A stretch of DNA of 34,944 nucleotides from Acidobacteriota bacterium (GTDB lineage: Bacteria; Acidobacteriota; UBA4820; DSQY01): contig JAKAJA010000001.1 of the NCBI GenBank assembly GCA_021814085.1, positions 1-34,944 of the forward strand. Reading direction: 5' to 3'. Made by a program: the position numbers and the translations under genes. How positions within the stretch are numbered: the stretch's first letter is position 1; each line of letters starts with the position of its first letter. Below the pieces are notes generated by a model. It was given only the letters and a program-made list of their open reading frames with translations. It did not search any database and had not been told where the DNA came from. This document shows positions 20,518 to 34,944 of the stretch, piece by piece.

Positions 20518-21987
20518 TTAAAGGCTTCTAAAACGCGCCTTGCGCCGCTTCCCGCGCCGGTAATCCATCGCGCCCGCAGCCCCATCCGGCCCATCATCGT
20601 GTTCCCGGCCGAGGGGCTCCCAGGCATAAAGTTGTTCGAGCAGGAGCGGCGTGTCGCCGATCTCCCGGCAGAAGAGGAGGTCTCCGGAGTCGTGAAGGGG
20701 TACGAGCCGCTCGATCCGCACGCCCTTGTTCTCTTTGCTGGTGACGGGAGCCAGCGGCAAGCAGTAACCATGGACCAGGGCCGCCCGGTCGAAGTCTCGC
20801 TTCAGGTGCTCCTGGAACCCGTTGCTCTCCAGCGCGAACACCTTCGGGTGCAGCTCCTCGTTGATTCGGTAACAGGCCTCCACCATGCTGTAGATGGTGG
20901 CGTGGCGGATCCAGCATGCGCAGAGGTACTCGCGGGGGTCGTCCTCCGCGGCGCGCCCGATGCCCACCACGGCCTTGTAGTCCCCTTGCCGGCTGGCGAG
21001 CACCGATGGGTCGATGAAGACGATCACGTCTTTCATGTCTCGCAGCTTGGAATGAGGAAAGGCCTGCGTCTTCTCGGGCTGGAAGTAGTGGCTGTCATCC
21101 ACCGGGGCGCACATCATCTCGCGGGCGAACCGCACGAAACCGAGGATGCGCTTGAGGGTGGACAGGACCTTGGTGGGGAACCGCTCGGGCCAGGTGGGCC
21201 GGCCCCGCTTGTCCATCGCCGGGAAGACTCGCCGCAGCCATTCCTTGTATTCGGGGTGGAACAGCAGGGTGCCGATCACGCCCGTACGGTTGATGACGTT
21301 GCCCACCAGGACCAGGCGCCAACCCCTGGCCTCGAGGCGCGGCAACACGGTGGCGAGGATCCACGTCAGCACCTTCTGCACCCGCCGCGGGCTCACGGCC
21401 AGGTCGTCATCCTCGATGTCATCCAGGAGGACCAGGGAGGGCCGGTACTGCCTCCAGCGCAGGCCCCTGAAGGCCTGCCCGGCGCCGCGCGCCTTCACTC
21501 GGACGCCCTGGCGCGTGGCAAAGTCGCCGTCCTCCCACTTCCACTTGCCCTTGAGGTGGCCGAAGTCCTGGAGAATGCGCTCGTTCTCCTCCAGCTCCAC
21601 CTTCACCATCGCGGTGGATTGCGCGGCCAGGTCCTCGGTCATGCCGCCGATGACGATGAAGGGCGCTGTCTTGAAGACCACGGCATGCAAGGCTTCCACA
21701 ATGGTTACGAGCGAAGACTTCCCGAAGCCGCCCGCGCTCGCGATGATCACGGGTCGCTCAGCGACCTGCGCCGCCTCGCTCATGGCCGGGTGGAACGGGG
21801 CGAAGCCTTCATAGAAGTAGTGCGGGAGGTAGGTCTTGGCGAAGTAGATGTGATCCTGCTTGGCTTTGGCCAGGCGCCTGGCCCGCGCTTCGGGTGACTT
21901 CCCTTCGAAGGGCCGGGCCTCCTCGCGCATGGCCTGAAGGGTCTCGCTGAGCTTGGCCTCGAATTCCCGCGGGGAGAGGCGGGGCAC
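20518..21987 (-). CDS. Terminase large subunit, about 489 aa from a GTG
   Basis: P-loop-like IIASAGGFGKSS and an acidic LVLLDDIEDDD Walker-B-like motif. GGAGG RBS 5 nt before the GTG at 21987, one nt after the TerS stop. Confidence 0.85.
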   Translation of the reverse strand: MPRLSPREFEAKLSETLQAMREEARPFEGKSPEARARRLAKAKQDHIYFAKTYLPHYFYEGFAPFHPAMSEAAQVAERPVIIASAGGFGKSSLVTIVEALHAVVFKTAPFIVIGGMTEDLAAQSTAMVKVELEENERILQDFGHLKGKWKWEDGDFATRQGVRVKARGAGQAFRGLRWRQYRPSLVLLDDIEDDDLAVSPRRVQKVLTWILATVLPRLEARGWRLVLVGNVINRTGVIGTLLFHPEYKEWLRRVFPAMDKRGRPTWPERFPTKVLSTLKRILGFVRFAREMMCAPVDDSHYFQPEKTQAFPHSKLRDMKDVIVFIDPSVLASRQGDYKAVVGIGRAAEDDPREYLCACWIRHATIYSMVEACYRINEELHPKVFALESNGFQEHLKRDFDRAALVHGYCLPLAPVTSKENKGVRIERLVPLHDSGDLLFCREIGDTPLLLEQLYAWEPLGREHDDGPDGAAGAMDYRRGKRRKARFRSL

Positions 21988-21988
21988 T

Positions 21989-22534
21989 TCAGCCTCCGGC
22001 CAGGGCGATCTTCCGCCGCGATTCCAGGAACGACTCCACGTGGGCCTCAAGCCTGGGGAGCAGGCTCGGCTCCCCGGCCTTCACATGCGCCACGAAGAGA
22101 TTGAGGATGGCGAAGATGGTGGTCACGGTGAGCTTCTCGCCCCGGAGCCTGTCCACCGCCGTGGTGATTTTCAGGATGGAATCGGCCAGGGGGGCGCTTA
22201 GCTCGCGCTTGCCCTCCTCGACCTCCATGAGCATCTGGAGGAGCTTGCGCTCCAGGATATCCGCCGCGCCGTCCTTGCTCGCAAGCATGGCCCGGCGTTT
22301 CGACTCCCAGCCGCCCTCTTGGGCCCACCGGCCCACCGTGGCGGCGGACCGGTCGAGCACCTTGGCGATGTCCATGATCTTCGCGCCCTCGCGGATGAAG
22401 GCGTGCTCGGCCTGCAACCTCTCTTGAAATTCTGAGTTGCCCTTGGAGACGGAGATAGGGATGGGCGGCGGCTTCTTGTCGTCGGCCTTGTGGTGCTTCC
22501 ACTTGCGTCCTACTATCCCGCCCTTGCGCGGCAT
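21989..22534 (-). CDS. Terminase small subunit, 181 aa from MPRKGG
   Basis: Basic N-terminus, HTH-like IMDIAKVLDRSAATVGRWAQEGGW. First gene after the terminator and immediately upstream of TerL. Confidence 0.7.
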   Translation of the reverse strand: MPRKGGIVGRKWKHHKADDKKPPPIPISVSKGNSEFQERLQAEHAFIREGAKIMDIAKVLDRSAATVGRWAQEGGWESKRRAMLASKDGAADILERKLLQMLMEVEEGKRELSAPLADSILKITTAVDRLRGEKLTVTTIFAILNLFVAHVKAGEPSLLPRLEAHVESFLESRRKIALAGG

Positions 22535-22578
22535 CTGCACCTCGCCGTAGACAGCATGGGAGGGCTGGAGAGCAAGAG

Positions 22579-22597
22579 GCCAGCAAGAACGCGAGGA
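22579..22597. repeat. 19-mer GCCAGCAAGAACGCGAGGA, copy 2 (candidate late-promoter box upstream of TerS)
   Basis: Identical to 18333-18351. The flanking A/G-rich sequence is also similar (AGAA-AAA-C). Confidence 0.8.
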
Positions 22598-22602
22598 GTG
22601 AG

Positions 22603-22631
22603 AAAAAAGCGGGCCCCACAAAGGGGCCCGC
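22603..22631 (-). terminator. Rho-independent terminator ending the middle transcription unit
   Basis: Minus strand reads GCGGGCCCC-tttgt-GGGGCCCGC followed by TTTTTT. Lies 31 nt downstream of the lipoprotein stop. Confidence 0.9.
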
Positions 22632-22661
22632 CTCGTGAACGGCGCGGAGACCAGCGCCCTC

Positions 22662-22961
22662 CTAATGCGTCTCGGTTTTTGATTGCGTCTTGTCGGTGAG
22701 TATGCCTTCCTGGTTGAAGGTGAGCACGACCATGGAGGCCTTCGCCCCTCCGAAGGCCGTGGCGTGGGTGTAGTGCCAGATGAGCACCGACCCGCTCGTG
22801 CTGTCCGTCACCGTGCCGGGCTTCCCGAACAGGGCAATGGCATCCGCCCGCGTGGAAGTCCCGACTGTGAGCTGGTCCGTTAGGGACGGGTCCACCCGCG
22901 AGCCGACTGTCACGCACGCGGCCATCACCAGGATGAGACTCAACACGCCGAACACCTTCAT
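22662..22961 (-). CDS. BamE/SmpA-OmlA-like outer-membrane lipoprotein, 99 aa
   Basis: Signal plus lipobox-like LILVMAA-C. LTVGTSTRADAIALFGKPG... motif typical of the SmpA_OmlA family. AAGGAGGTG RBS. Confidence 0.7.
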   Translation of the reverse strand: MKVFGVLSLILVMAACVTVGSRVDPSLTDQLTVGTSTRADAIALFGKPGTVTDSTSGSVLIWHYTHATAFGGAKASMVVLTFNQEGILTDKTQSKTETH

Positions 22962-23000
22962 CTCACACCTCCTTCTCTGCGTGTGGTTCAGTATAGCGCT

Positions 23001-23648
23001 TCATCGGCCAAAGGGTAGGCTGGGGCGGTGGCGGAAGAAATAGGAAAGTTGGGCTTCCGAGATGCCCGTGGTCAGGGCGATTTCGCGCAGGCTCTTTCGG
23101 GCGGCCCGTAGATCGTAGCACCGCGCGGCCAGCTCGTTCGTCATGTGGACGGGCGTTCCGTTCTTGCGGCGGCTGGGTTTCCAGCGCTCCTCCAGCACAG
23201 TCAACTTGAACCGCTGGAGGTTGATGACCTCGCCCTGAAGTTGGACTAGCCGCTCAAAGCTTACACCGCGTCCCGCCTCGTAAGCCCCCGAGGCGGCGCC
23301 AAGGATGTTCTTGAGGGTCTCCTCCATCTTGTTGAACGCCTTGATGTAGGCCAGCTTGAACCTAATGGCCTCCTTGCCCGTAAACCCCATGGCGAGAAGT
23401 GTGAATCCGTCCCTGGTGATCTCGGCCATGGGCCTGGTTTGCCCATGGTCGTCAAGGTAGGTGACGAGCGCAAAATTGCGCTCGTTGAATTCTGAGGGCA
23501 CATCCAGCTCCCGAATGGTCCTCAGCACATCTCTATGCCGCTTGCCGAAGACCTTGGCCACCTGTTGCGATGTGGTAATGGGGTGGCCTTCCTTCGCGGT
23601 GACGGCATCATGCGGGAGTTCCACCAGCGCTAACCCGTTCGTGGTCAT
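23001..23648 (-). CDS. Rha-family phage regulatory protein, 215 aa from MTTNG
   Basis: TTSQQVAKVFGKRHRDVLRTIREL...TRDGFTLLAMGFTGKEAIRFKLAYIKAFNKME matches the Phage_pRha signature. ATGA overlap with the upstream ORF. Confidence 0.8.
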   Translation of the reverse strand: MTTNGLALVELPHDAVTAKEGHPITTSQQVAKVFGKRHRDVLRTIRELDVPSEFNERNFALVTYLDDHGQTRPMAEITRDGFTLLAMGFTGKEAIRFKLAYIKAFNKMEETLKNILGAASGAYEAGRGVSFERLVQLQGEVINLQRFKLTVLEERWKPSRRKNGTPVHMTNELAARCYDLRAARKSLREIALTTGISEAQLSYFFRHRPSLPFGR

Positions 23649-23863
23649 GGGCAACCTCCTCTCACCATTTGGGTTTCAACGGCTTCGGCGCTCGCCTCGG
23701 CCTCTTCAAGCAGGGACAGGACGACGCCCCAAAGCAAAGGGGCGTCATTGGCGGGGGCCTCTGCGATCCGGGCCGTCACGGCGCGGGCTTGGCAGAGCGT
23801 GCTGTAGAGCTTGGGGAAGTCCTGGGGGTGTCGGAACGGGATGGGGCGGGGGTTGGGTGGCAT
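23645..23863 (-). CDS. Hypothetical protein, 72 aa
   Basis: AGGAGG RBS 5 nt upstream of the ATG. Translationally coupled to the Rha-like gene. Confidence 0.55.
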   Translation of the reverse strand: MPPNPRPIPFRHPQDFPKLYSTLCQARAVTARIAEAPANDAPLLWGVVLSLLEEAEASAEAVETQMVRGGCP

Positions 23864-23871
23864 GCGGGCCT

Positions 23872-24067
23872 CCTATCGTGGCGGTGCGTTTCCCGCCAAC
23901 CCCCTTGCAAAGGGGTGGGCGGAGCCTGCGGGTTGCAAGACCGGCGATAGGACCGGCGAGCCTTTCGGCTCCCCGCAGGACCCGCCCATAAGGAGAGGCC
24001 CTGCCGCGCAACAAAAATGGAGCGTTCTTGGCGCTCCGTCGCGCCTATCGTCCGGGCTTGCAAACCC
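23872..24067 (-). promoter_or_regulatory. Structured 5' leader: a 22-24 nt inverted repeat closing a three-hairpin junction, plus an RBS-proximal third copy of the repeat
   Basis: B (24044-24067) is complementary to A (23930-23951). Enclosed hairpins lie at 24013-24043 (core 24019-24037), 23975-24004 and 23958-23971 (GAAA loop on the minus strand). The CGATAGG of the B arm recurs in CGATAGGAGG at the RBS (23869-23878). Confidence 0.55.
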
Positions 24068-24093
24068 GATTGGGGTACGCCCCCAACAAGGTC

Positions 24094-24123
24094 AATATCG
24101 GTCCGGACGGGTGCGTTTGTCAA
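24094..24123 (-). promoter_or_regulatory. Candidate sigma70 promoter for the middle unit
   Basis: Minus strand reads TTGACA (24123-24118), an 18-nt spacer, then GATATT (24099-24094). Confidence 0.45.
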
Positions 24124-24206
24124 GTGCCTCTCCTCAAACAACCTACTGCGCCTAATCCTCGTTGTAGCTCACCGCTCCGCGGGAGCTAAACTCGGCATTG
24201 GGCTAC

Positions 24207-24464
24207 CTAAAAGCGTACATCCACAATTTCAGCCGTCCGCTCCTGAAAACTCGCGCACCTACGCCTGTAACCCCATTTCTCATCAATGGGGCTTCGGGGG
24301 CGAAGAAAGCGTATTCGAATCCCAAGACCGCATCTCCCCTGAATTGTTAGGGCAGGTTGATCCCATTTGATATTCTCGCAATCCTCACAGTTCCGCGTAG
24401 GTAGCCCAATAGGCCGTTCGAGCGGACGGTCCATGCTCTGCTTTTTCGTTTTACGCTCTGCCAT
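24207..24464 (-). CDS. Hypothetical 85-aa Cys-containing protein in a lower-GC island (coding status uncertain)
   Basis: Strong AAGGAGG RBS 5 nt before the ATG. CxxC (NCEDC) plus two further Cys. Third-position GC is clearly lower than in the neighbours. Confidence 0.4.
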   Translation of the reverse strand: MAERKTKKQSMDRPLERPIGLPTRNCEDCENIKWDQPALTIQGRCGLGIRIRFLRPRSPIDEKWGYRRRCASFQERTAEIVDVRF

Positions 24465-24516
24465 CTCTACCTCCTTGCCCGCCGCTCAACGGCGTGGCAT
24501 TATGTAGCCTCTCCCT

Positions 24517-24738
24517 TTACACCGCCTCTTGGAGCCGTTCGAGGTGGTCTCGCACTTCACTGCTGGGCACGAGCGTTTTATGGGGCCCCCGACGATCGCA
24601 CTTGATATGGCCTTCCGCGATCCACCGGTAGATGGTGGAGATGTGCACGTCGAGGAGCGCGGCCAGCTGGGACACGCACCAGGTTTGGCGCATGGCTAGG
24701 CGGCTCATGATCTCGTCTCGGCTCTTGGGGTCACCCAT
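24517..24738 (-). CDS. Small HTH DNA-binding protein (excisionase/MerR-like HTH), last gene of the early operon, 73 aa from MGDPKS
   Basis: CVSQLAALLDVHISTIYRWIAEGHI helix-turn-helix. Occupies the position of Mu mor, after the gemA-like gene. Confidence 0.65.
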   Translation of the reverse strand: MGDPKSRDEIMSRLAMRQTWCVSQLAALLDVHISTIYRWIAEGHIKCDRRGPHKTLVPSSEVRDHLERLQEAV

Positions 24739-25156
24739 GGGCAGTCTCCTTCCCGCCCGCCGGCGGGCCGGGGGCTCCATAGTTCCAGCGCCGCAGCGCC
24801 TGGATTAACTTTGATAGGTCGCGCCGGTCGCACCACTTGAGGGCGTCGCGCCCGGTGACGTGCCTGAGGATCCCATTGAACCGATGGTCGTCCACCTTGT
24901 GCTCACGGCAGAGCCGCTCAATCTCGCGCATCTGGCCGCGCGTTCCGCCCGCTGGTGTTGCGGGCTTGGCGGTTGGGATGAAGCCCAGCTGCGCGAAGAC
25001 CTTCATCATCTCGAAGTAGTGTACGGGCTGGAGGCACCTGTCCGTGCTCTTCTTCGCCCCGAACCTCGACAAGAGCGCCCGGTACGTATCCTCGTCCATG
25101 CTGACCTTGGACTTGGCCACATGGATGAGCTTGATCATGCGCGGAGAAAGGCTCAT
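24731..25156 (-). CDS. gemA: Mu gp16/GemA-like protein, 141 aa
   Basis: MIKLIHVAKSKVSMDEDTYRALLSRFGAKKSTDRC...MMKVFAQLGF resembles the DUF1018/GemA signature. ATGA coupling. Confidence 0.65.
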   Translation of the reverse strand: MSLSPRMIKLIHVAKSKVSMDEDTYRALLSRFGAKKSTDRCLQPVHYFEMMKVFAQLGFIPTAKPATPAGGTRGQMREIERLCREHKVDDHRFNGILRHVTGRDALKWCDRRDLSKLIQALRRWNYGAPGPPAGGKETAHG

Positions 25157-25377
25157 GGCCGGGCCGCCTGATCTCTGGCGTCGGCCGAGGTATAGACCAC
25201 CCAGCGGCGGTGCGCCTCGCACAGTCCCGCGCCGAGCGCGGCGCCCAGAAACGCCCATCCGTAGGGGGTGACGCCGGCCAATGAGTACCCAAGTGCGATG
25301 AAGGCCGCCGTGGCGGCCAATGTGCCCGCTCCGGCCCTCAGCCTGCTTTCGTCCACCAGCTTGGGATGGCGGCTCAT
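25153..25377 (-). CDS. Small two-TM membrane protein, 74 aa
   Basis: Two hydrophobic segments (TLAATAAFIALGYSLAGV and WAFLGAALGAGL). ATGA overlaps at both ends. Confidence 0.6.
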   Translation of the reverse strand: MSRHPKLVDESRLRAGAGTLAATAAFIALGYSLAGVTPYGWAFLGAALGAGLCEAHRRWVVYTSADARDQAARP

Positions 25378-25625
25378 ATCCCCTCCAGGTGGGCCTCGGT
25401 GACGGCCTTGCAAATGGCCAGGCCCAGCAGGTCGTCCAGGTCGCAGGGCGCTGGGCCGAACCGAGAGACGGCGAGGACGCGCTCGATGCACGGCTGGTGG
25501 CCGTTGGCGGCCCGCCTGGCCCAACTGAGCGCCTCCAGGGGTTCAGGGATGTGCGCCGCGGGGCCCGCGTGGCCGAGGGCCTCCCCTACTTCCTTCCATT
25601 TGGCGAGGATCTCGTCGCGGGTCAT
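25374..25625 (-). CDS. Hypothetical protein, 83 aa
   Basis: ATGA overlaps at both ends. Coding-like composition. Confidence 0.6.
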   Translation of the reverse strand: MTRDEILAKWKEVGEALGHAGPAAHIPEPLEALSWARRAANGHQPCIERVLAVSRFGPAPCDLDDLLGLAICKAVTEAHLEGI

Positions 25626-26821
25626 GCCGCCGCACCTTTCTCGGCGCGCATGCGCCGGTGGACGCGCAGGAGGACTAGATAGCCCATGAAGTCCTGCTCG
25701 GTGTCTTCTCCTGCGGCTTCGCCGCGCATGAGACGCGAGAGCTTGTCGTCCAGGCGCACCCGGATCTGTTCCTCGGGATCGGCCTTGCTGAAGACCCTCA
25801 CCGGGTCGAGGGCGCTGTTGCCGTAGGCCCGGTTCTTGGCCATGAGCATCTCGGCCAGGGCTTCGCACTCGTCCCAGATGGCCCGTTGGATCGGGTTCAT
25901 GGTTTCATCGGTGAGGACGAAGGACAGGTCCGCGTCTTCCCCGAGCGACAGGGCCAGGTGGCGGGTCTCCACGGCGTAGCCCTCCGTCTCGCAGCGCACG
26001 GCGTAGAGGCCCACGGGCAGGAAGGGGACGCAGAAGCGGCCGTCCTGGCCCGTCGCCGCCCCCTGGAAGCCTTGGAGCCGCGGGCCGGTCACCTTGATGA
26101 GGACATTCGGGAGGGCCGACCCGCCCTGATCCGTGACGCAGCCGTGGAGGCCAGCGCCCATGGCCCGGTCTTTCAACTCAAAGATCTCGGGCGCGGCTTG
26201 GATGGTGGCCGCGGCGCGCTCGCTCGCATTGTTGAAGCTGGACGTGGACGGGAGGTAGGGGTCTGGGCTGGGCTCGGCGGCCTTGGCCTGGTGCTTTCGG
26301 TCCGCTAATGCGTCGGCCTTGGCCTGGCGGGCCTTTTCCAGTTGGAGCGCCATGCGCCCGTCGGCCTTCCGCGCGGCCAGGGAACAGGCGCTGCAGGTTT
26401 TGGCCTTCCCGTACTGGTTCATCCAGCCCGTTTCACACGCGGGGCAGGGGATTTTGTGATTCGTGCCCACGACGACAGCGCCGAGGATCGTGACCGTGGC
26501 GCCTTCCGGCAGGGGCCTGTCCCCGTACTTGTGCTTCCTCTCCTCGGTTTTCGGCATGTTCATCTCCCGTTCAACGTGTTCAACGCCTGGGCGCGACGGC
26601 TTCGCGTCCGGCTTGGCGATGTAGTGATGGCAGGCCCCGCGCTCGCAGAGGCCCCTGGCGGGCTCCGCGCGGTCCTGCTCTTGGCGCTGGTGGCAGACGG
26701 GCGCCCCGATGACGAACCCCGCGGACAGGCACATGTGGCCGCCCCGCACCGGGAACTTGCGATCCACCCGCGCGACGGCCAGGTCGGCGCTCCCACATAG
26801 GCCTTCAAGGGGATGGCTCAT
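25622..26821 (-). CDS. Multidomain early protein, 399 aa: Cys-rich N-terminus, zinc-ribbon (CPAC...CSAC), carboxypeptidase-regulatory-like beta-sandwich, DUF1599-like C-terminus
   Basis: The ATG at 26821 overlaps the stop of the upstream micro-ORF (ATGA). GCVTDQGGSALPNVLIKV...GQDGRFCVPFLPVGLYAVRCETEGY fits CarboxypepD_reg. NPIQRAIWDE...KNRAYGNSA...RVRLDDKLSRL...DFMGYLVLL fits DUF1599. An alternative internal start exists at 26557 (GGGAG RBS). Confidence 0.6.
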   Translation of the reverse strand: MSHPLEGLCGSADLAVARVDRKFPVRGGHMCLSAGFVIGAPVCHQRQEQDRAEPARGLCERGACHHYIAKPDAKPSRPGVEHVEREMNMPKTEERKHKYGDRPLPEGATVTILGAVVVGTNHKIPCPACETGWMNQYGKAKTCSACSLAARKADGRMALQLEKARQAKADALADRKHQAKAAEPSPDPYLPSTSSFNNASERAAATIQAAPEIFELKDRAMGAGLHGCVTDQGGSALPNVLIKVTGPRLQGFQGAATGQDGRFCVPFLPVGLYAVRCETEGYAVETRHLALSLGEDADLSFVLTDETMNPIQRAIWDECEALAEMLMAKNRAYGNSALDPVRVFSKADPEEQIRVRLDDKLSRLMRGEAAGEDTEQDFMGYLVLLRVHRRMRAEKGAAA

Positions 26822-26901
26822 GGGTTTACGTCCCGGTTTCTGAGGCGCCAGAGCCAGGCCAGCGCGATGAACCAGGCGAGGAGCATGGCAGCGACTTTCA
26901 T
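26818..26901 (-). CDS. 27-aa hydrophobic micro-ORF (MKVAAMLLAWFIALAWLWRLRNRDVNP)
   Basis: GGAGA RBS. ATGA overlaps with both the HNH stop and the next gene's start. One predicted TM helix. Confidence 0.45.
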   Translation of the reverse strand: MKVAAMLLAWFIALAWLWRLRNRDVNP

Positions 26902-27263
26902 GAGGGATCTCCGAAAAGGGCCTGGAAGCCCTTGGTGCGCTCGCGGGTTTCGCGGGCGTGCTCCTGCCGCATGGGCATATCCAGGCGGTTGTGGCAGCCC
27001 TCGCAGAGGGCGAGCAGGTTCTCGGGGCGATGGTCCCAGGGCAACTGGTTGATGTGGTGGACGGTGAGGACCACGGCGCGCTTGCGCCAGTAGAGACGGT
27101 ACCCCTGAGTGAGATGGCACCGGCCAGGGTGGCCTCCGCCGCCGTCATGCTCCTCGCCGCATTGCCCGGTGCATTCGCAGCGCCACCCCGCGCGCTCCTT
27201 CACAGCGTAGGAGATCGCGTGCCAGTCCGGCCCGTAGACGCTCTGATCCTTTACGGGGCTCAC
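26898..27263 (-). CDS. HNH endonuclease, 121 aa from a GTG
   Basis: WRCECTGQCG...VLTVHHINQLPWDHRPENLLALCEGCHN (the H-N-H and Cys-pair pattern). GTGA overlap with the upstream stop. Confidence 0.8.
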   Translation of the reverse strand: MSPVKDQSVYGPDWHAISYAVKERAGWRCECTGQCGEEHDGGGGHPGRCHLTQGYRLYWRKRAVVLTVHHINQLPWDHRPENLLALCEGCHNRLDMPMRQEHARETRERTKGFQALFGDPS

Positions 27264-27451
27264 GGGGTTCCCCTGCGTCGGCGTTTTCTGGTTGTGTCTC
27301 TGCCCCCGGTGAGCTTCTTGAGGGCGCAGGAGAAGCAAATGCCGACCCGATACCCCTCTGGCGTGGAATCGTCGGGAATCCTTACTTGGCCCGGCTTCCC
27401 GCAGGACGGGCACTTCGCATCCATGTTGATGTGGATCTCGTAGGTGGTCAT
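27260..27451 (-). CDS. Zinc-ribbon small protein, 63 aa
   Basis: CPSCG...CFSC, with a basic C-terminus. ATGA coupling. Confidence 0.65.
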   Translation of the reverse strand: MTTYEIHINMDAKCPSCGKPGQVRIPDDSTPEGYRVGICFSCALKKLTGGRDTTRKRRRRGTP

Positions 27452-27813
27452 GCGACCACCTCAAAAGGCAGGGATTGCGCCTGGGATTGCGCCGGATATT
27501 GCATGCCGCTCTTCATTCGGCGCAATGTCTTAATGCGCTGGGACTCCGCGTTGACGGTCTTTTCGAGGATGCGGAGGCCCTTCTCAAATTGCTCCGGATT
27601 GCGCGCGATGAAGTAGCCCGCGCCCTCGTTCATGACCGGGATGTGGAGGACCATGACCAGGTGGTCCAGGGCCTCGCGGATGCGGCGCTCGGCGCTGGAG
27701 ATCTTCATGCCGTGGGGCCCGCACAGGTCCGCCAACTCGCGTCGTTTCAAGGGTTTGGGGGAGGACCGGAGGGTGGCCAGGATGCACAGGGCCAAGGGCT
27801 TAGCGTCGTTCAT
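27448..27813 (-). CDS. Winged-helix-like early protein, 121 aa from MNDAKPL
   Basis: ATGA overlap with the upstream stop. LKRRELADL...ISSAERRIREALDHLV pattern. Confidence 0.55.
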   Translation of the reverse strand: MNDAKPLALCILATLRSSPKPLKRRELADLCGPHGMKISSAERRIREALDHLVMVLHIPVMNEGAGYFIARNPEQFEKGLRILEKTVNAESQRIKTLRRMKSGMQYPAQSQAQSLPFEVVA

Positions 27814-28001
27814 GGGGCGTCCCATCCCACGGCCTTGCTGATGACAGGGTTCCATCCCCCGTAGGCCTCGAACCTTTTCATGATTTCCGAGAGGATCTCG
27901 CCAGTCTCGGGCGTCTCCGGCGACGGTAGAAATCGCATCCACCTGGCGAGTTGCAGCTTGTCGGCCTTTGAAACCTGGGCCAGGTCTGGATAAGGCATCA
28001 T
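27810..28001 (-). CDS. Hypothetical protein, 63 aa
   Basis: ATGA overlaps at both ends. Confidence 0.55.
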   Translation of the reverse strand: MMPYPDLAQVSKADKLQLARWMRFLPSPETPETGEILSEIMKRFEAYGGWNPVISKAVGWDAP

Positions 28002-28462
28002 GGCCTCACCTCCATGACGGTGACTTCGAGGAGGGCGACGCCACGCTTTTCGATGTGGAGCTGGCGGGCGGCCTCCTCGCTCAGGTCGAGATCCCGCCCG
28101 GCGACGTAGGGCCCCCGGTCCGTCACCCGCACGTCCACCCAGCGATGGGTCCTGGGGTCCACCAGGTGCAGCCAGGTGCCCTTCTTGATCGTCTTATGGG
28201 CGCAGGTGAAGCCCCAGCGGTCGAAGCGCTCCCCCGAGGCCGTGAGGCGCCCCTGGTGGTGCTCGCCATACCAGCTCGCCCGCATAAGCCGAGGGCCGCC
28301 GGCCGCCACTGGGAGGGCGAGCGCGACGAGGAGGGCCAGGGCGGACAGCGCGGGAATAAGGCAGCCACCGCCGCCTTCCCAGATCGTCTTCCCCGGCCCT
28401 GGTCGTGGTGCTGGAGCCGCAGACTTCGTGGACACGTGGGCTCTTGGGCTCATGGGCTCCAT
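27998..28462 (-). CDS. RlpA-like (double-psi beta-barrel) lytic transglycosylase-like protein with an N-terminal membrane/signal segment
   Basis: MRASWYGEHHQGRLTASGERFD...FTCAHKTIKKGTWLHLV...VDVRVTDRGPYVAGRDLDLSEEAARQL matches the RlpA/DPBB_1 signature. Preceded by CLIPALSALALLVALALPVAAG. Confidence 0.75.
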   Translation of the reverse strand: MEPMSPRAHVSTKSAAPAPRPGPGKTIWEGGGGCLIPALSALALLVALALPVAAGGPRLMRASWYGEHHQGRLTASGERFDRWGFTCAHKTIKKGTWLHLVDPRTHRWVDVRVTDRGPYVAGRDLDLSEEAARQLHIEKRGVALLEVTVMEVRP

Positions 28463-28488
28463 CCTTTCGGCCTCGTCAGCGCGGGCCT

Positions 28489-28565
28489 CACCCGCGGACA
28501 GGGGGAATCGAACCCCCTGTTTCGGCCTACCTTGCCGGCTAGGACGCGATTTCCTCCATGTCCAC
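28489..28565 (-). other. tRNA-like structure (not a canonical tRNA gene) overlapping the last 8 codons of the Gam-like gene
   Basis: Minus strand: acceptor GTGGACA/TGTCCGC (one G-U); D-arm AGGA-aatcgcg-TCCT; canonical T-arm GGGGG-TTCGATT-CCCCC (28501-28517). The anticodon arm is only 4 bp with loop AAGGTAG (no U33), there is no GG in the D-loop, and 3 nt lie between the acceptor and D stems. Confidence 0.45.
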
Positions 28566-29066
28566 GCTGGCGGGCTTGGCCCAGAAGGTCTCGTCCTGGA
28601 CGATCTCCAGGCCCTTGACGCCCTTGATCTGGCTGGGATCTTCGAGGACGGCCTTCTTGTTGATGTCCTCCTTGATGGCCACGAGCATCTCCAGGCCCTT
28701 GGCCTTGAGCAGCTCGAGGACCTTGGGGAGGCCCGTGACCTTGACCTTGGGCGGGTTGGTGCGCCAGCCCACCTCGCCGGTGCCCAAATTTACGGAGCGC
28801 TTGCCCTGGGCCGTGAGGTCGTCCTTGTTGGCTTCGGCCCACGTCTGGAGGCCGCCCACCAGGTCTTTCACCTGGGCGGCGAGGGCCTGGATCTTGGGTT
28901 GGAACTTGGCCGTCACCTCGGCCACGGCCTTGTCCAGGTCGGCCTGCAACTTCGCCCGGTCGGCCATGGCCGTGCCCAGCTCGCCCATTGCGTTGCTGGC
29001 CTCGGCCGCCGTCTGCGGCGTGGCGCGGTGGGCCTGGGTTGCGATTCGCATGGTGTTCTTCGCCAT
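28539..29066 (-). CDS. gam: Mu Gam-like host-nuclease inhibitor, 175 aa
   Basis: Size, N-terminal coiled coil (LQADLDKAVAEVTAKFQPKIQALAAQV) and position downstream of the B-like gene, as in Mu-like phages. AAAGGAGG RBS. Confidence 0.65.
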   Translation of the reverse strand: MAKNTMRIATQAHRATPQTAAEASNAMGELGTAMADRAKLQADLDKAVAEVTAKFQPKIQALAAQVKDLVGGLQTWAEANKDDLTAQGKRSVNLGTGEVGWRTNPPKVKVTGLPKVLELLKAKGLEMLVAIKEDINKKAVLEDPSQIKGVKGLEIVQDETFWAKPASVDMEEIAS

Positions 29067-29078
29067 CGTGTACCTCCT

Positions 29079-29330
29079 TTAAGCAATCCGGTTTTGTTGG
29101 GGCATGCGGAGCCGGTTGGCCGGGGGGACCATGGCGGCCTGGCCGGACCTGTCCAGCACATAGAAGTAGTGCCGGGCGCTCTGTGCGGCGTTCTCGTGCG
29201 CCATCATGGCCCGGCGCAGATCCTCGTCCCTGCCCGTGGCCTGCGCGATGCACAGCAGCTCGCTGGCGCGCTTCATGTCGTCCAGTGCTCCCGTCCTGTA
29301 CCCGTCCACGATCTTCTCGACTTCTGGCAT
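29079..29330 (-). CDS. Hypothetical early protein, 83 aa
   Basis: GAGGAG RBS. Coding-like composition. Confidence 0.55.
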   Translation of the reverse strand: MPEVEKIVDGYRTGALDDMKRASELLCIAQATGRDEDLRRAMMAHENAAQSARHYFYVLDRSGQAAMVPPANRLRMPQQNRIA

Positions 29331-29353
29331 GGTCGTCTCCTCTCTTGTTGCGG

Positions 29354-30268
29354 TTAGCTGGCCTTGAGCAGGATGATGCCGCTCGCCGCCCGTACGTGAT
29401 CCGCCGTCACTTCGCCTGCCTTGTTGAGCCGCGCCACGCGCTGGGCCTGCGCGGCCAGCTTGGAGGCCGCCCTGAAGCTCTGGGTATGGCCGACCTTGGT
29501 GATGGCGCGCCGGGCCGCCGTGTCATGGATGTTGAGCCGGTCAAGGTATTCGGCCAGATCTGGCTCGGTAGGGTTTCCCACGGTGATGAAATAATCGACC
29601 CGGCTATACAGCTGGGCCATGCTCTCTGAGGCATTTGGCCCACGGGTGAGGGTGCGCTGGAGCTGGGGGGCACCCGCGAGTAGGAGGCCCAGTTGCTTGG
29701 TATCGAGCAGGGTGCGCATCCCCTCGAGAGCGCGCCGGTTCAGGGCGTCCGCCTCATCCAGGATGAGCAGCTTACCCTTCAGGCGCTTCTTGGCCTGCTG
29801 CATCATGACGGCGGTGGTGGCCCCGCCGCCTTCCTCGCCGAGGATAGCCTGGAGCAGGTAGAAGAGCGTTGTGGTCACGTCGCAGCGGACGAGGACAACA
29901 CCATCGTTCTCCACGTAATATTTATTGAGCGCCTCGGTCTTTCCCACACCCGGCAGGCCGATGATGACGCCGAAACCCTTGTTTTCCTGACACTCGCGGC
30001 ACACCTCGTGGATCATTAGGAGGCCCTGAGTGTCCACCGGCCCCTGGCCGATCTGGGTAATCTCCGCAAGGAACTTCTCCACCCGCCTATTCATGGTCTC
30101 TGGCGTGCTGTACGTCCCATGCCGCCAAGACGACAGGCCAGAGTCCGCGATCCCCATCTTCCGGGCCACCTCGGCCCAGGGCCACCCTCTCTGCTGGCGG
30201 TAGGCCTCAAGTTTCGCCACCAGCGTCGGGTCCGTCGCTCCCGTTCTTTGTTCTTGGTTTACCGGCAT
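29354..30268 (-). CDS. MuB-like AAA+ DNA transposition ATPase, 304 aa from MPVNQ
   Basis: Walker A GLPGVGKT and Walker B LLILDEAD. N-terminal HTH-like WAEVARKMGIADSGLSSW. Immediately downstream of the transposase. GGAGG RBS 5 nt before the ATG at 30268. Confidence 0.85.
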   Translation of the reverse strand: MPVNQEQRTGATDPTLVAKLEAYRQQRGWPWAEVARKMGIADSGLSSWRHGTYSTPETMNRRVEKFLAEITQIGQGPVDTQGLLMIHEVCRECQENKGFGVIIGLPGVGKTEALNKYYVENDGVVLVRCDVTTTLFYLLQAILGEEGGGATTAVMMQQAKKRLKGKLLILDEADALNRRALEGMRTLLDTKQLGLLLAGAPQLQRTLTRGPNASESMAQLYSRVDYFITVGNPTEPDLAEYLDRLNIHDTAARRAITKVGHTQSFRAASKLAAQAQRVARLNKAGEVTADHVRAASGIILLKAS

Positions 30269-30352
30269 CGTCACCTCCTCTATCTCGCCCTCTCGATCAG
30301 CACTCAGCTCACATACCCGCCCGTGCGGGCTGTTCGCATGTCACAACAAGGT

Positions 30353-32335
30353 CTAGGGTCTCGTCTCCTTGCTCTCCGGTTCTGGTTGAAAGCCCCACAG
30401 CCTGAGCACCTGGCCGCTGACCGCCGCTGCCTGGGCGGCCGTAGGGGGTAGTGCGGGGGCCTCGGCGGCCTTCCTAGCGGCCCGGCTGAGACGCCCCGTC
30501 TGCTGGATTACTGGCTGTTCTTGGCCGTTGGTGTCGCATCTTGTGATGGGGGGCAGGTAGAGCGAGAACCGGCTCTGGCGGAGCCGCTCCTTAAAGGCCT
30601 TTTCCACTGCCTTTCGCTTCCGGATAACCTCGGCCACGAGGGCCTTCTCCTCTTCGGTCTCGGCCATGGCTGGCAACGACTCCACGAGGGCGGCCTTGCA
30701 TAGAAACTGCCCCTTGCGGATCACGGTCACCGTCGCGGGATCATTGGGGTTGTAGAAGACCTCCACCGGGCACTCCAGCCCGAGCATGTTGTCGTGGTCG
30801 TAGGCGTTCCCGTGGACGGTGATTCTGCCGCCTTTCTGGATGATCCTGTTCACCTTGGGGAAGCACAGGAGGTCGAGGAGTGTCTCGTGCGGCATGACCG
30901 CCGGGCGCGCGTTCCGCATCCAGGCCTGGCTAGGCGTTAGGCCCTTGAGCCCGCGATGCTTGTGGTTGTGGTAGTGCTCCATGGCCAGCTCGAAAATGGC
31001 GCTGAACTCGTACCACATGAGCAGGGGAGGGCGCTCGTCTTCCGGTTTCCCTGCCTTTATCCATTTCTGGGTCTGAGCCACTTGAATGCTTGCAGTCTCT
31101 GGCCGGTTGGACGGCTTGTTGCCGATGTAGCCCGGCAGAAGGTTCAGGACGAACGAATAGACCGTTCGGAAACCACGCTCGATGACCTTGGACTGGCCGT
31201 GATAGGGCTGGCAGAAATGCACCTTCGTGCCGATCTCGCCGAAAAACCCCGCGCCTATGGTCTCCTCGCTCTGGTGGTAGACGAGGTGGGTTTCCCCGTT
31301 CAGATGCTTGGAGCGGTAGTCCCTCCCGTTGTCCATGAGCACGTGGTCTGGTCGGCCGCACCAAGGGAGGCCCTCTTTCTTGATGATCCCATCCCGCATG
31401 GCGCGGGCGATGCTCATGGAGTTGGGCCCGAAGTTCAGGTCGTACCCGACGAGGGCGCGGGAGCACCAGTCCATCCACCCGGTCAACCAGGGTCGCTGAA
31501 TGGTGTCGTCGGGGGCGACCACAAGGACATCTATTTGGTGGTGGTCTCCCACCCAGATCTCATTGCAGTGCTCGGGCGCAAGCCGCTGGACGTAGGCCTC
31601 GTGCCGGTCTCGGTAGGCCTTCGAGCCCTGTCGCGCATAGGTGGCGTACGCCGGGTTATCCTCAATCGCCGTGGCGATCCACCGCGCCAGGGTGGAGTAG
31701 GGCGGCGCCTGGGGGCCGAATTCGGCCCGAAGGGCGTGGTGGACCTGGATTTTCATCGGGCGCTCAGGCTGGAAGTAGAGCCGTTCGCAAAAGGCCGCGA
31801 CTTCGGGGGGGAAGTTGGTGGTGCCCTTGGTCCGACCGCTTCTATTAAGTAAGGATGGGGATGCCCCGTCGAACCGCTTCTTCCAGTTATAGAGGGTCTG
31901 CATGGTGACCTTGTGGGCCTTGGCGAATACCGTCCGCTCCGTGGTGCTGCCGAGCGCGAGCCACTCCTCCAGTAGGCGCTTGCGCCTATCGGCATCTCTG
32001 CGCTTCGGGGCCGGTGCGGCCATGTAGGAGGCCTGGCTGCCGGAGGGGGCCGGGGTGGGCAACGCCATTTGCGCCTGCACCAGCCCATCGATATGGCTGG
32101 CCAGCAGCACGTCTGACTGCTCCTTGCGATACGCCATCTGCGCATCGAGTTGCAGACATGAAACATGGACCTGCCATTTCTCCCCGTTCCGGCATGGGGC
32201 CTTCCGGGTGGCCGCGTATGTCCCTTTTGTGAGTTTCCTTGAGACGGCTTGGCGCGAGATGCCCTCTAAGGTTGCAGTTCGATCGAGGTCAAGCCAGCCT
32301 GCTTCGTCAAGTTGATTCGTCGTGGTGTCAGGCAT
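30353..32335 (-). CDS. MuA-like DDE transposase, 660 aa
   Basis: WVGDHH (first D), VLMDNGRDYRS (second D, about 71 aa later), PYHGQSKVIERGF (E, about 51 aa later). N-terminal HTH-like region. Confidence 0.9.
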   Translation of the reverse strand: MPDTTTNQLDEAGWLDLDRTATLEGISRQAVSRKLTKGTYAATRKAPCRNGEKWQVHVSCLQLDAQMAYRKEQSDVLLASHIDGLVQAQMALPTPAPSGSQASYMAAPAPKRRDADRRKRLLEEWLALGSTTERTVFAKAHKVTMQTLYNWKKRFDGASPSLLNRSGRTKGTTNFPPEVAAFCERLYFQPERPMKIQVHHALRAEFGPQAPPYSTLARWIATAIEDNPAYATYARQGSKAYRDRHEAYVQRLAPEHCNEIWVGDHHQIDVLVVAPDDTIQRPWLTGWMDWCSRALVGYDLNFGPNSMSIARAMRDGIIKKEGLPWCGRPDHVLMDNGRDYRSKHLNGETHLVYHQSEETIGAGFFGEIGTKVHFCQPYHGQSKVIERGFRTVYSFVLNLLPGYIGNKPSNRPETASIQVAQTQKWIKAGKPEDERPPLLMWYEFSAIFELAMEHYHNHKHRGLKGLTPSQAWMRNARPAVMPHETLLDLLCFPKVNRIIQKGGRITVHGNAYDHDNMLGLECPVEVFYNPNDPATVTVIRKGQFLCKAALVESLPAMAETEEEKALVAEVIRKRKAVEKAFKERLRQSRFSLYLPPITRCDTNGQEQPVIQQTGRLSRAARKAAEAPALPPTAAQAAAVSGQVLRLWGFQPEPESKETRP

Positions 32336-32400
32336 TTAGCGCCTCATTGGTGTGGTTGCAGTTCGATCGATCAGAAGTTGCAGTTAAAGTTGCAGTTCGG
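32270..32400. repeat. Four copies of GTTGCAGTT, two within an identical 17-mer GGTTGCAGTTCGATCGA (32270-32286 and 32354-32370)
   Basis: Read directly. Further copies lie at 32377-32385 and 32389-32397. The 17-mer is read in different frames in the transposase N-terminus and in the upstream 85-aa ORF. Confidence 0.85.
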
Positions 32401-32585
32401 AGGCCGTTTACACAAAGCAGACAAGCCGCCGATTTAAGGTCCTTTTTAATGAAGGTCAGCGTCGCTTCTCGCCCGAACGCTCCCGGCATGCAGACAATGC
32501 AGATCCCGTGGCTCAGGCCGCTCCGAACGAGCCGTACCAGGTCCACGCTCTGGATGCTGCCGCACCACGCGCAACAGGTGGTCAT
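32328..32585 (-). CDS. Cys-rich small protein, 85 aa
   Basis: CCAWCG...HGICIVC motif. ATGA overlap upstream and an 8-nt overlap with the transposase start. Confidence 0.55.
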   Translation of the reverse strand: MTTCCAWCGSIQSVDLVRLVRSGLSHGICIVCMPGAFGREATLTFIKKDLKSAACLLCVNGLRTATLTATSDRSNCNHTNEALNA

Positions 32586-33031
32586 GCCTCGTCCTCAAAG
32601 AGGGTGGGAGCGTCATGGGAAAGGATGGCCTTCTGGAACCCTGCGGCCTTCTCCAGCTCCGCCTGGATGGCGGTGAGGGCGGCCTCGGCGCTCTGGCGGC
32701 CGTGGTAGAAGCCGCAGACGGCCTTCATGGCGGCGGCCTGGCTTGCCTGATACTCGGCCAGCTCGGCCTCGCGCGCCGCCCTCACGCGGGGCAGGCGCAC
32801 CATCACAAACCCGAGCCGTGCGGCCAGGTGCTTGAGGATGCTGTAATCGCGGGTCTTTTCCATGAGGGGGATGAGATGCTTCGAATTGATCCGGGCCTCT
32901 TCATCGAGCGGGTTGCTCAAGCGGTAGAGCGTTCCCGGCTTGACCCCGAGCGCATCCGCCAGCTCCTCGATGCCCTCGCCGCCCCTGTACCGGCGGACCG
33001 TCGCCGCAACGACCTGGTCCAATGTCTTCAC
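32582..33031 (-). CDS. Early regulatory protein with N-terminal HTH (CII/CP76-like guess), 149 aa from a GTG
   Basis: IEELADALGVKPGTLYRLSNP helix-turn-helix. GGAGGGGG RBS. Confidence 0.55.
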   Translation of the reverse strand: MKTLDQVVAATVRRYRGGEGIEELADALGVKPGTLYRLSNPLDEEARINSKHLIPLMEKTRDYSILKHLAARLGFVMVRLPRVRAAREAELAEYQASQAAAMKAVCGFYHGRQSAEAALTAIQAELEKAAGFQKAILSHDAPTLFEDEA

Positions 33032-33194
33032 GGGTCCCCCTCCACTACCGTCCGAGATGTCGGACGTTGATTAACTCCCTGATTCCACTAATTGACTGAC
33101 GCCCCTCCAGGCCCTAGACTGAAAAGAGTGGGGCCCCCAGGAGCGACCCAGGGACCCCGTTGAGGAATGGAGGGGGAAGCATAGCGAGAGCACG

Positions 33195-33467: not shown

Positions 33468-33470
33468 CAC

Positions 33471-34266: not shown

Positions 34267-34288
34267 TAGAAGGTGCGGGAGGCTTCTT

Positions 34289-34699: not shown

Positions 34700-34709
34700 G
34701 GGTGAAGAT

Positions 34710-34917: not shown

Positions 34918-34944
34918 GCCGGGCGAGGGCCTCCTGGCAACCCG

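Follow-up and report, generated by a model that had tools for sequence, protein, structure and literature searches.

The immI region of phages P1 and P7 (c4, icd, ant1/ant2; Citron and Schuster 1990; RF01695) is the closest described counterpart of the locus analysed here. RNase P excises the P1 C4 RNA from its transcript, with GGW as the cleavage site (PMC5320573), and the RNA has an antisense function that extends to action in trans. The ribosome-binding site (RBS) is occluded by the b′ sequence of a C4-type RNA, and after processing the P1 and Acinetobacter homologues build up as RNAs of their own (PMC5320573). A passage in Additional file 1 of PMC2864571 attributes a model of competition by a1b1 in P1 c4 to Citron and Schuster (1990). 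The P1 record is annotated in the order promoters, a1, b1, c4, a2, b2, icd (73 aa) and an ATGA-coupled ant1.

Three further systems are related by layout. In the isrK-orf45-anrP region of Gifsy-1 (RF01394), IsrK activates anrP translation and works in cis and in trans (PMC4825925). The c4-a1b1 motif (RF03163) comes from Weinberg et al. (2010), who reported it in gamma-Proteobacteria and phages. CI of P4 (seqA/seqB/seqC), in the comparison offered by the IsrK paper, is a processed RNA that lies inside its own target transcript between complementary flanking sites (PMC4825925).

We analysed a stretch of 34,944 nt, hereafter the window. An earlier note had described three related segments on its minus strand, and all of its coordinates were borne out. 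Segment B (24067-24044) comprises a1/b1, segment A (23951-23930) holds b′ and a′, and the split segment C, in which TTGCAAG occupies 23910-23904 and CGATAGGAGG occupies 23878-23869 ahead of the ATG at 23863, corresponds to a2/b2. Together the segments amount to what is known from P1: a C4 antisense RNA, decoy sites ahead of it and, behind it, a target on the RBS of an antirepressor operon. The feature is therefore real and of a kind already described. The locus as a whole is very probably a P1 immI-type immunity cassette, consisting of an a1b1 leader, the C4 RNA, an a2b2 target, a leader ORF and an antirepressor gene.

The window shares with P1/P7 immI the RNA fold and the order of parts. Upstream, both have a promoter, a hairpin, the a1 hairpin, b1, a terminator with its clamp, a leader and C4. 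Downstream, both have a2, a spacer, b2 on the Shine-Dalgarno (SD) sequence and a leader ORF of 72-73 aa, to which an antirepressor gene is joined by an ATGA overlap. The a′/b′ specificity sequences of the window differ from those of P1/P7, its leader ORF is unrelated to Icd, and its effector is a Rha-domain protein and not Ant1/2.

The C4 RNA and its fold

A match to Rfam RF01695 (C4 antisense RNA) covers positions 23911..23993 on the minus strand and model positions 1-87 of 87, with 63.8 bits against a gathering score of 45 and E=2.6e-10 for the whole window. The earlier note had recognised no known family here, which this match corrects. It had rightly placed a regulatory RNA with a GAAA loop on the transcribed minus strand. 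The only curated match to a known cis-regulatory leader or riboswitch was PreQ1-III on the opposite strand, at chance level (16.3 vs 63 bits).

The predicted mature C4 (23987-23914, minus strand) is a 74-nt RNA of the sequence GGGCGGG...CCGCCCACC, with ends deduced from the P1 c4 annotation and the GGW site of RNase P. The predicted end contexts resemble those of P1: at the 5′ end UAU stands before the cut and GGG after it, and the 3′ end is CCACC. P1/P7 immI and the window agree there in UAU before GG and in a terminal CACC. Hairpin I (23971-23958) is GAGCC-GAAA-GGCUC. Hairpin II (23957-23940) is GCCGG-UCCUAUCG-CCGGU, with the b′ loop at 23952-23945. It is followed by the single-stranded a′ junction CUUGCAA (23939-23933, 7 nt). 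The closing stem forms 16 of its 17 pairs in the window, with a lone U·C mismatch, and the hairpins add 5 + 5 pairs.

The earlier note had proposed a search for covariation in homologues. In an alignment of 81 homologues fitted to the covariance model, 98.7% of the cells in the C4 helices were paired, and compensatory changes were found at 22 of the 26 pairs. The model R1 of this work scores the window at 77.3 bits, a match that holds by construction because the R1 alignment includes the window. The fold supported by covariation is the compact C4, with a closing stem of 16-17 bp and two hairpins, and it leaves both halves of segment A exposed.

Leader, proposed target sites and Rha-type gene

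The candidate promoter (24094..24123, minus strand) consists of TTGACA (24123-24118), 18 nt and GATATT (24099-24094), as the earlier note had it. It was the only such site in a consensus scan of 22900-24900, where 0.4 were expected. The predicted transcription start (approximately 24088-24086) lies immediately ahead of hairpin 1. The distance from the end of the −10 hexamer to hairpin 1 is 6 nt, and this relative placement is that of P1c4/P51b in the P1 record. The window differs from P1 in that it has one promoter-like site, where P1 has two annotated, and no operator was found in the window. A palindrome in the promoter spacer, GTCCGGAC, was considered as an operator; it occurs once only, at chance level, with no inverted repeats nearby.

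The leader begins with hairpin 1 (24069..24087, minus strand; GUUGGGG-GCGUA-CCCCAAU), an a1b1/IsrK-type element within the match to the leader model R2. Its helix is 93-94% paired across 43 loci, and every pair shows compensatory changes. The a1 hairpin (24053..24068, CGGG-UUUGCAAG-CCCG) displays a1, UUGCAAG (24063-24057), which is the complement of the a′ junction. Its stem is 98% paired in the 43 loci; in the a1:a′ columns pairing holds in all 43, and each column has 4-16 double changes. The upstream copy of the b′ target, b1 (24044..24050, CGAUAGG), is an exact 7-nt complement of 23951-23945.

A terminator-like module follows (24006..24044, minus strand). It consists of a 5′ clamp GCGCGAC (24044-24038), a hairpin GGAGCG-CCAAGAA-CGCUCC (24037-24019), a U-run AUUUUUG (24018-24012) and a 3′ clamp GUUGCGC (24012-24006). 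The terminator scan picked out the hairpin and U-run. Of 66 loci, 54 have such a combination in the stretch from a1b1 to C4; among random segments it was seen in 17 of 314. In 46 of 56 cases the clamp strands form a better helix with their own partner than with one from another locus (p=1.6e-7); this and the other p-values given here overstate independence, because the compared loci are related to one another. The earlier note had labelled the region a middle-operon leader. We find no support for that label; the region has a promoter-like site of its own, a terminator-like hairpin and probable control of a Rha-type antirepressor.

A leader model that was constructed with the window left out matches 24088-23994 over model positions 1-98 (29.8 bits, E ~9e-8); the same model gives 55.5 bits in P1 and 71.3 bits in the IsrK region of phiV10. 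The a1 hairpin region itself has weak matches to two Rfam families, both below threshold. Where the gathering scores are 46.7 and 50 bits, respectively, the window reaches 16.9 bits with c4-a1b1 (RF03163; E=0.22, 1.2-kb search) and only 17.4 bits with isrK (RF01394; E=0.48, hairpin 1 unaligned). The window has the c4-a1b1 layout: two hairpins, the second with an a1 loop, adjoin b1 on its 5′ side and precede C4. The published motif is without the terminator and clamp of the window. The Gifsy-1 isrK region resembles 24088-24012 in its succession of hairpin, a1-type hairpin, b1 and terminator-like hairpin, in a short ORF coupled to a downstream antirepressor and in a possible alternative pairing of leader and downstream sequence; this link between the window and IsrK rests on the phiV10 and P1 sequences and not on the Gifsy-1 sequence. 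In phiV10, an isrK match (75.9 bits) precedes a C4 match (77.7 bits) by 25 nt, and a Bro-N gene also lies downstream of it. The C4 RNA, the c4-a1b1 motif and the IsrK sRNA stand apart in Rfam and the literature. In the comparison they emerge as components of a single conserved transcription unit, found in P1 and phiV10, in the window and in dozens of viral contigs.

On the other side of C4, the a2 hairpin (23901..23915, minus strand; CCCC-UUUGCAA-GGGG) displays a2, UUGCAAG (23910-23904), an exact complement of a′. It comes directly after the C4 3′ end, and across loci a2 starts 0-10 nt past C4; the hairpin is 81% paired, with compensatory changes. A spacer hairpin between a2 and b2 (23880..23897, GGCGG-GAAACGCA-CCGCC) appears in the minimum-free-energy folds, and the MAFFT alignment gives it only 47% pairing. 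The b2 site (23878-23871, CGAUAGGA) is an 8-nt complement of the b′ loop and overlaps the SD sequence AGGAGG (23874-23869). Across loci b2 lies 28-40 nt past C4, with the ATG next in nearly all of the 43 aligned loci.

The complementary stretches are each short (7-8 nt), and their recurrence was assessed in two ways. Three occurrences of the motif TTGCAAG-N(4-34)-CGATAGG were found in the window, two of them on the minus strand (segments B and C) and one as the complement (segment A); 100 shuffles gave none. For 73 a′/b′ types from other C4 loci, matches of at least 7 nt to the targets of the same locus were also compared with matches to the targets of different loci. Self and non-self rates were 83% vs 9.6% for b2, 87% vs 16% for a2 and, in the upstream flank, 64% vs 8% for b1 and 93% vs 20% for a1. 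Target positions are stereotyped across C4 loci. The window is typical of them, with a1/b1 at the distance usual for the family.

The leader ORF, orf72 (23645..23863, minus strand; ATG at 23863-23861), occupies the place of P1 icd (73 aa) or Gifsy-1 orf45. It is in the ORF list and was also called as a gene on the source contig, which is an ENA metagenome contig. It had no Pfam or PHROG match and no similarity to P1 Icd or to the leader ORFs of other loci. Its stop overlaps the next start in the sequence ATGA (23648-23645), and short first ORFs with such an overlap are frequent behind C4. The next gene (23001..23648, minus strand) encodes 215 aa from an ATG and matches Pfam Phage_pRha (E=1.8e-30); its PHROG matches are Rha-like regulators and anti-repressors. 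Genes at the same position in other C4 loci carry KilA-N, Rha, Bro-N, ORF6N, AntA or P22_AR_N domains. The Rha-type gene is likely the effector under C4 control.

Proposed regulation and the mode of target control

Transcription would start at the candidate promoter (24123-24094). Judging from the sequence and its homologues, many transcripts probably end at the hairpin and U-run (24037-24012), which would give an IsrK-like RNA of approximately 75 nt with a1 and b1. The read-through RNA contains C4. By analogy with P1, RNase P would cut 5′ of G23987, and the 3′ end would be trimmed to ...CCACC at 23914, releasing the compact C4 of approximately 74 nt. The fold shown by covariation exposes b′ (UCCUAUCG, the loop of hairpin II) and a′ (CUUGCAA, the junction). 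Both are complementary to a2/b2 on the orf72-rha message, and they may pair with it in the resident prophage or in a superinfecting phage of the same specificity. Translation of orf72 would then be prevented because b2 overlaps the SD sequence, and the antirepressor would not be made because rha is coupled to orf72 through the ATGA overlap. Lysogeny and immunity would be maintained while the antirepressor is absent. The a1/b1 sites may compete for a′/b′. In cis, this would take the form of the B:A helix of the unprocessed precursor; in trans, the competitor would be the short RNA that ends at the U-run. Such competition would leave less active C4 and permit antirepressor expression.

The earlier note had called the segments a translational switch or another regulatory RNA. 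The regulatory character stands, but the reading as a cis switch is too narrow, since the P1 RNA is excised by RNase P and acts in trans. The pairing of A with either B or C is likewise partly retained: A is complementary to both, which is essentially the 1990 model for P1, but the covariation-supported fold leaves A exposed.

We find it improbable that the locus is a purely cis-acting switch, in which an unprocessed leader toggles between the A:B junction and A:C at the RBS with no processed trans-acting RNA. Gifsy-1 offers a precedent, an inactive "structure A" formed by IsrK and a downstream segment of approximately 30 nt and supported by mutations and native gels (PMC4825925). However, a processed species of approximately 80 nt is also reported from Gifsy-1 (PMC4825925), in line with the separate RNAs of P1 and Acinetobacter (PMC5320573). 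The clamp helix and the helix between the leader and the C4 5′ strand are locus-specific, as such a switch would have it, but covariation follows the compact C4 fold, and that between a1/b1 and a′/b′ is blind to whether pairing occurs in cis or in trans. A:C pairing in cis appeared in none of the predicted minimum-free-energy folds of the window and in 1 of 54 loci.

The processed RNA might instead pair with both sites mainly to bring about premature transcription termination, as with CI of P4, and not a translational block. We regard this as very improbable. The site-RNA-site layout is that of seqA-CI-seqC of P4, which the relevant passage of the IsrK paper calls a structural homologue (PMC4825925). 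A terminator-like hairpin lies immediately past a1b1. In P1, the translational block of icd also reduces ant transcription by polarity. Against this, CI acts by transcription termination, whereas the 3′ site of the window covers the SD sequence. The overlap of b2 with the SD sequence and the ATG that follows it in most loci point to translational block as the primary event. The terminator scan gave no site between b2 and rha, and the family match is to C4.

The idea that the feature is a decayed tRNA-like remnant or a functionless set of GC-rich palindromes can practically be dismissed: the window is GC-rich and its shuffles also fold strongly (mean −103 kcal/mol), but the native fold has z = −5.75, the target motif occurs three times against none expected, every part is intact and canonically placed, the Rfam match has E=2.6e-10, and ARAGORN found no tRNA or tmRNA gene in the whole window.

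Precursor folds and the carrier element

The earlier note had proposed a four-way junction closed by the B:A helix. This junction is the minimum-free-energy fold of 24093-23860 (−129.6 kcal/mol, z = −5.75), but it is not robust: with 7-12 nt more at the 3′ end, the minimum flips to a C4-containing fold (−131.8 to −132.2 kcal/mol). It is a plausible conformer of the unprocessed precursor, one of two predicted folds of nearly equal energy. In transcripts ending at the C4 3′ end or the a2 hairpin, the best fold that includes the C4 stem falls approximately 9 kcal/mol short of the junction. The predicted thermodynamics favour the C4 fold in the uncleaved precursor only once the SD region is transcribed. 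When precursors ending at C4 were folded, a1 was paired with a′ in the minimum-free-energy fold of 33 of 54 loci.

The C4 precursor leader (23988..24005, minus strand; GGCAGGGCCUCUCCUUAU) has two possible partners: the C4 closing stem, whose 5′ strand it would pair with in the GCAGGGCC/GGGUCCUGC stem of the earlier note, and the SD region AGGAGGCCC, with duplex energies of −18.0 and −19.3 kcal/mol, respectively. Whole-precursor MAFFT alignment left the leader stem and the clamp 32-61% paired, with variable spacers misaligned; these helices were assessed by per-locus self vs non-self duplex energies instead of MAFFT covariation. Pairing of the leader with the C4 5′ strand was better within the locus in 41 of 48 cases (p=7e-7), and pairing with the SD region in 33 of 48 (p=0.002); the controls were not significant for either.

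A modest lead is an apparently conserved precursor fold in the C4 family. We tentatively speculate that the junction is a conserved second conformation of the C4 precursor that acts as a kinetic gate. In this conformation, a1/b1 may sequester a′/b′ while a helix clamps the terminator across its U-run, and the leader may sequester the 5′ strand of the closing stem together with the presumed RNase P site. If so, the gate would decide whether a read-through transcript becomes mature C4, with immunity kept, or stays unprocessed as a translatable antirepressor message. The proposal overlaps with the structure A/B model of IsrK. In the literature consulted, which lay outside the original P1 papers, we met no description of a gate-type second conformation for C4. 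These results leave the general view of how C4 cassettes work unchanged. They also yield a testable idea of how the precursor may be steered to processing or to translation.

For annotation, a 260-nt "unknown structured leader" becomes a defined immunity cassette, and the Rha-type gene is identified as the likely antirepressor of an uncultured Mu-like phage. The carrier element, which encodes GemA and DUF1804 proteins, is a new and very divergent Mu-like phage. A search of reference-genome contigs with its TerL gave a single distant match (27% identity) and no close relative, and tblastn identities of TerL to known phages were all below 30%. BLASTN of the region against phages gave only two matches of approximately 45 nt, both within C4-type loci. 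One of them is the APSE-7 locus, which is annotated as C4 with a′ and b′ regions.

C4 antisense RNA ahead of orf72 and rha

The Rfam scan of the whole window gave one match over threshold, the C4 antisense RNA (RF01695), at 23993-23911 on the minus strand, which covered model positions 1-87 and scored 63.8 bits (gathering score 45). The family had gone unrecognised in the earlier note. This kind of RNA is already known and curated; the new element here is its instance in a very divergent Mu-like phage. A tRNA was rejected, as ARAGORN finds none in the window.

The closing stem of C4 spans 17 positions, with 16 pairs and one U.C mismatch, and encloses hairpin I (GAGCC-GAAA-GGCUC) and hairpin II (GCCGG-UCCUAUCG-CCGGU), followed by a 7-nt single-stranded junction (CUUGCAA). 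In the nomenclature of the phage P1 record, the hairpin II loop is b′ and the junction is a′. Because the C4 fold places b′ in this loop and a′ in the junction, segment A (23951-23930) is not one helix strand paired with segment B, as had been proposed, and comprises the two antisense elements b′ and a′.

The consensus scan showed a promoter-like site, TTGACA-18-GATATT (24123-24094), which is the only one in 2 kb (0.4 expected). Segment B (24067-24044) contains the upstream sites a1, in a hairpin loop, and b1. Segment C is split. Its first half, TTGCAAG (23910-23904; UUGCAAG as RNA), is the downstream site a2, presented in a small hairpin's loop and beginning directly after the C4 3′-end. Its second half, CGATAGGAGG (23878-23869), precedes the ATG at 23863, and site b2 (CGAUAGGA) overlaps the Shine-Dalgarno (SD) sequence AGGAGG. 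The promoter-like site and the three segments all lie on the minus strand where the earlier note had placed them. The pattern TTGCAAG-N(4-34)-CGATAGG was found three times in the 34.9-kb window, twice on the minus strand (B and C) and once as its complement (A), with 0 expected from 100 shuffles.

The ATG at 23863 starts a 72-aa ORF (orf72), whose stop overlaps the next start in an ATGA at 23648-23645. The following gene, rha, encodes a 215-aa antirepressor-type protein with a Phage_pRha domain (E = 1.8e-30), and its PHROG matches were Rha-like regulators and anti-repressors. No genes were called between the HTH gene and orf72 on the source, an ENA metagenome contig.

Complementarity and covariation across C4 loci

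Related loci were collected by an IMG/VR pattern scan and a scan for Rha relatives, filtered by a C4 covariance model, which yielded 88 C4 matches with 73 distinct a′/b′ combinations. Complementarity was defined as a contiguous Watson-Crick match of at least 7 nt between a C4 element and the flank of its own locus (self) or of another locus (non-self). Downstream, b′ matched the next 200 nt (b2) in 83% of self and 9.6% of non-self comparisons, and a′ matched its flank (a2) in 87% and 16%. Upstream, the proportions were 64% and 8% for b′ (b1) and 93% and 20% for a′ (a1). The positions were stereotyped: a2 lay 0-10 nt and b2 28-40 nt after C4, a1 lay 55-100 nt upstream of C4, and b1 followed a1 by 13-16 nt. 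In the window, a2, b2, a1 and b1 were at +0, +32, -70 and -57.

Alignment of 43 whole precursors with MAFFT showed that the a1:a′ columns were paired in 43/43, with 4-16 double changes per column, and that an ATG followed b2 in nearly all. In 81 C4 sequences, aligned by fitting to the covariance model, 98.7% of cells of the C4 fold were paired, compared with 79.3% after shuffling and 35-49% when the partners were slid, and compensatory changes occurred at 22 of 26 pairs.

The genes behind C4 at other loci encode KilA-N, Rha, Bro-N, ORF6N, AntA or P22_AR_N domains; exceptions include an integrase, an HNH endonuclease and a T5orf172 protein. In about half of the loci, the first ORF behind C4 is a short one, often with an ATGA overlap. 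The leader ORFs that separate the antirepressor gene from the C4 target (30-120 aa, 29 loci) were mostly unrelated, with only three similar pairs, and orf72 had mostly no similarity to the short first ORFs of other C4 loci. By their sequences, such ORFs fit a role mainly in translational coupling, and less as conserved proteins.

Some contigs carry more than one C4. Two copies were present on each of L147, L002 and L090. Viral contig L153 (IMGVR_UViG_2806310672_000003, 2351-4994) has four C4 RNAs on the same strand, about 850 nt apart, which suggests C4-antirepressor cassettes arranged in tandem. Its three parsed C4s have distinct b′ loops, two of them share one a′, and a Rha-like ORF of ~177 aa comes after each; the a′/b′ parse of the fourth (4053-4140) was unsuccessful.

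The a1b1 leader and the four-way junction

In the P1 record, the order is operator Oc4, promoters P2c4 and P1c4, a1, b1, c4 (77 nt), a2, b2, icd and ant1. The a2/b2 sites are labelled 'repression of icd ant translation', icd encodes 73 aa, and ant1 overlaps it by 4 nt. The P1 sequence also has two unannotated features: a hairpin with a U-run between b1 and c4, with a clamp helix (GCGGACA...UGUCCGU) on its flanks, and a leader that could base-pair with the C4 stem's 5′ strand. P1 scored 68.8 bits for C4, 51 bits for c4-a1b1 and, below threshold, 35.1 bits for isrK (E = 8.5e-6), the last in its a1b1 region. Phage phiV10 has a full isrK match (75.9 bits, gathering score 50) that overlaps one to c4-a1b1. 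A C4 match (77.7 bits) follows the isrK match at a distance of 25 nt, and a Bro-N antirepressor gene comes next. In a C4 cassette, the IsrK-type RNA is therefore the a1b1 leader together with its terminator. In phiV10 (L204, 1488-1686) and P1 (L201, 3218-3423), the isrK (RF01394), c4-a1b1 (RF03163) and C4 (RF01695) regions belong to a single transcription unit, where they adjoin or overlap. The IsrK paper relates IsrK to P4 seqA/CI and does not mention P1 c4 (PMC4825925).

The a1b1 region of the window scored only 16.9 bits for c4-a1b1 and 17.4 bits for isrK in Rfam. A covariance model of this leader, made from 42 viral-contig loci that included none of the window, P1 and phiV10, matched the window over its full length (24088-23994, 29.8 bits, E about 9e-8), the a1b1 region of P1 (55.5 bits, E = 1.1e-15) and the IsrK region of phiV10 (71.3 bits, E = 1.5e-20).

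A terminator-like hairpin with a U-run was present between a1b1 and C4 in 54/66 loci, against 17/314 random segments. In the window, this hairpin and its clamp (CGCGAC/GUUGCG) span 24044-24006. Because the 3′ strand of the clamp begins directly behind the U-run, only read-through transcripts can form this helix. Clamp pairing was better within than between loci in 46/56 cases (p = 1.6e-7), and this helix, which brackets the terminator-like hairpin, appears to covary. The GCAGGGCCU stem of the earlier note is the C4 leader, the stretch just 5′ of C4, paired with the 5′ strand of the closing stem. This pairing was locus-specific (41/48, p = 7e-7); the controls, leader with 3′ strand and leader with spacer, were not significant. 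The leader GCAGGGCCUCU (24005-23988) gave -18.0 kcal/mol with the stem 5′ strand (23983-23975) and -19.3 kcal/mol with the SD/start region AGGAGGCCCGC (23878-23860), the latter pairing being weakly locus-specific (33/48, p = 0.002).

The four-way junction enclosed by segments B and A was recovered as the minimum-free-energy structure of 24093-23860 (-129.6 kcal/mol, z = -5.75), and its terminator-like hairpin, clamp and leader stem are real family features. The junction is not the fold that covariation marks as the conserved RNA. Its stems compete with the C4 fold in the energy models, and prediction cannot choose between them. For a transcript to the C4 3′-end, the junction-type fold had -102.4 kcal/mol and the best fold with the C4 stem -93.0 kcal/mol; to the a2 hairpin, these were -111.0 and -101.6 kcal/mol. 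For a transcript to ATG + 10, enforcing the a1:a′ and b1:b′ pairs gave -129.0 kcal/mol, whereas the overall minimum of -131.8 kcal/mol holds the C4 fold, with the leader now paired to the SD region. In the minimum-free-energy folds of 54 loci, a1 paired with a′ in 33 (ending at C4) and 23 (ending at the start codon), and the C4 stem formed in 21 and 23. The junction is plausible as a conformer of the unprocessed precursor on these predictions, and it is similar to 'structure A', a translationally inactive form demonstrated for Gifsy-1 isrK-orf45 (PMC4825925). We consider it rather unlikely that the precursor's alternative fold serves as a conserved gate controlling C4 maturation; if true, this would be of moderate interest.

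In homologues, RNase P cleavage at a GGW site frees C4 from a longer transcript, b′ occludes the ribosome-binding site, and a′ adds specificity (PMC5320573). The a1/b1 sites were proposed as competitors of a2/b2 (Additional file 1 of PMC2864571). Termination produces short IsrK, and this RNA activates orf45-anrP translation from the read-through message; processing of the same message gives a species of about 80 nt (PMC4825925). Transcription of the window cassette probably starts near 24087 and terminates partially near 24012, and mature C4 is predicted to be 23987-23914. C4 would repress orf72 and, via coupling, rha, and a1b1 would relieve this repression.

The phage carrying the cassette

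GemA, an HTH_17 protein and an 85-aa ORF are encoded upstream of the cassette, and a BamE-like lipoprotein, DUF1804 and the large terminase downstream. Judged by this gene set, the element is therefore a Mu-like phage. No phage in the collection reached 30% identity to its large terminase, and no close relative was found among the reference genomes. The 85-aa ORF (24207-24464, minus strand) lies directly upstream of the cassette, has cysteine pairs (CEDC...C...C), and is absent from the gene calls of the source contig; its sole match, below threshold, was to the Mcm10 zinc-binding motif. A small zinc-finger regulator is one possibility; another is that the ORF is no gene at all. The minus-strand genes of 20518-34944 look like most of a Mu-like phage, with GemA, DUF1804 and a portal gene, and a 660-aa ORF in this region may be a transposase. 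A CarboxypepD_reg-domain protein (25622-27148) sits among the early genes.
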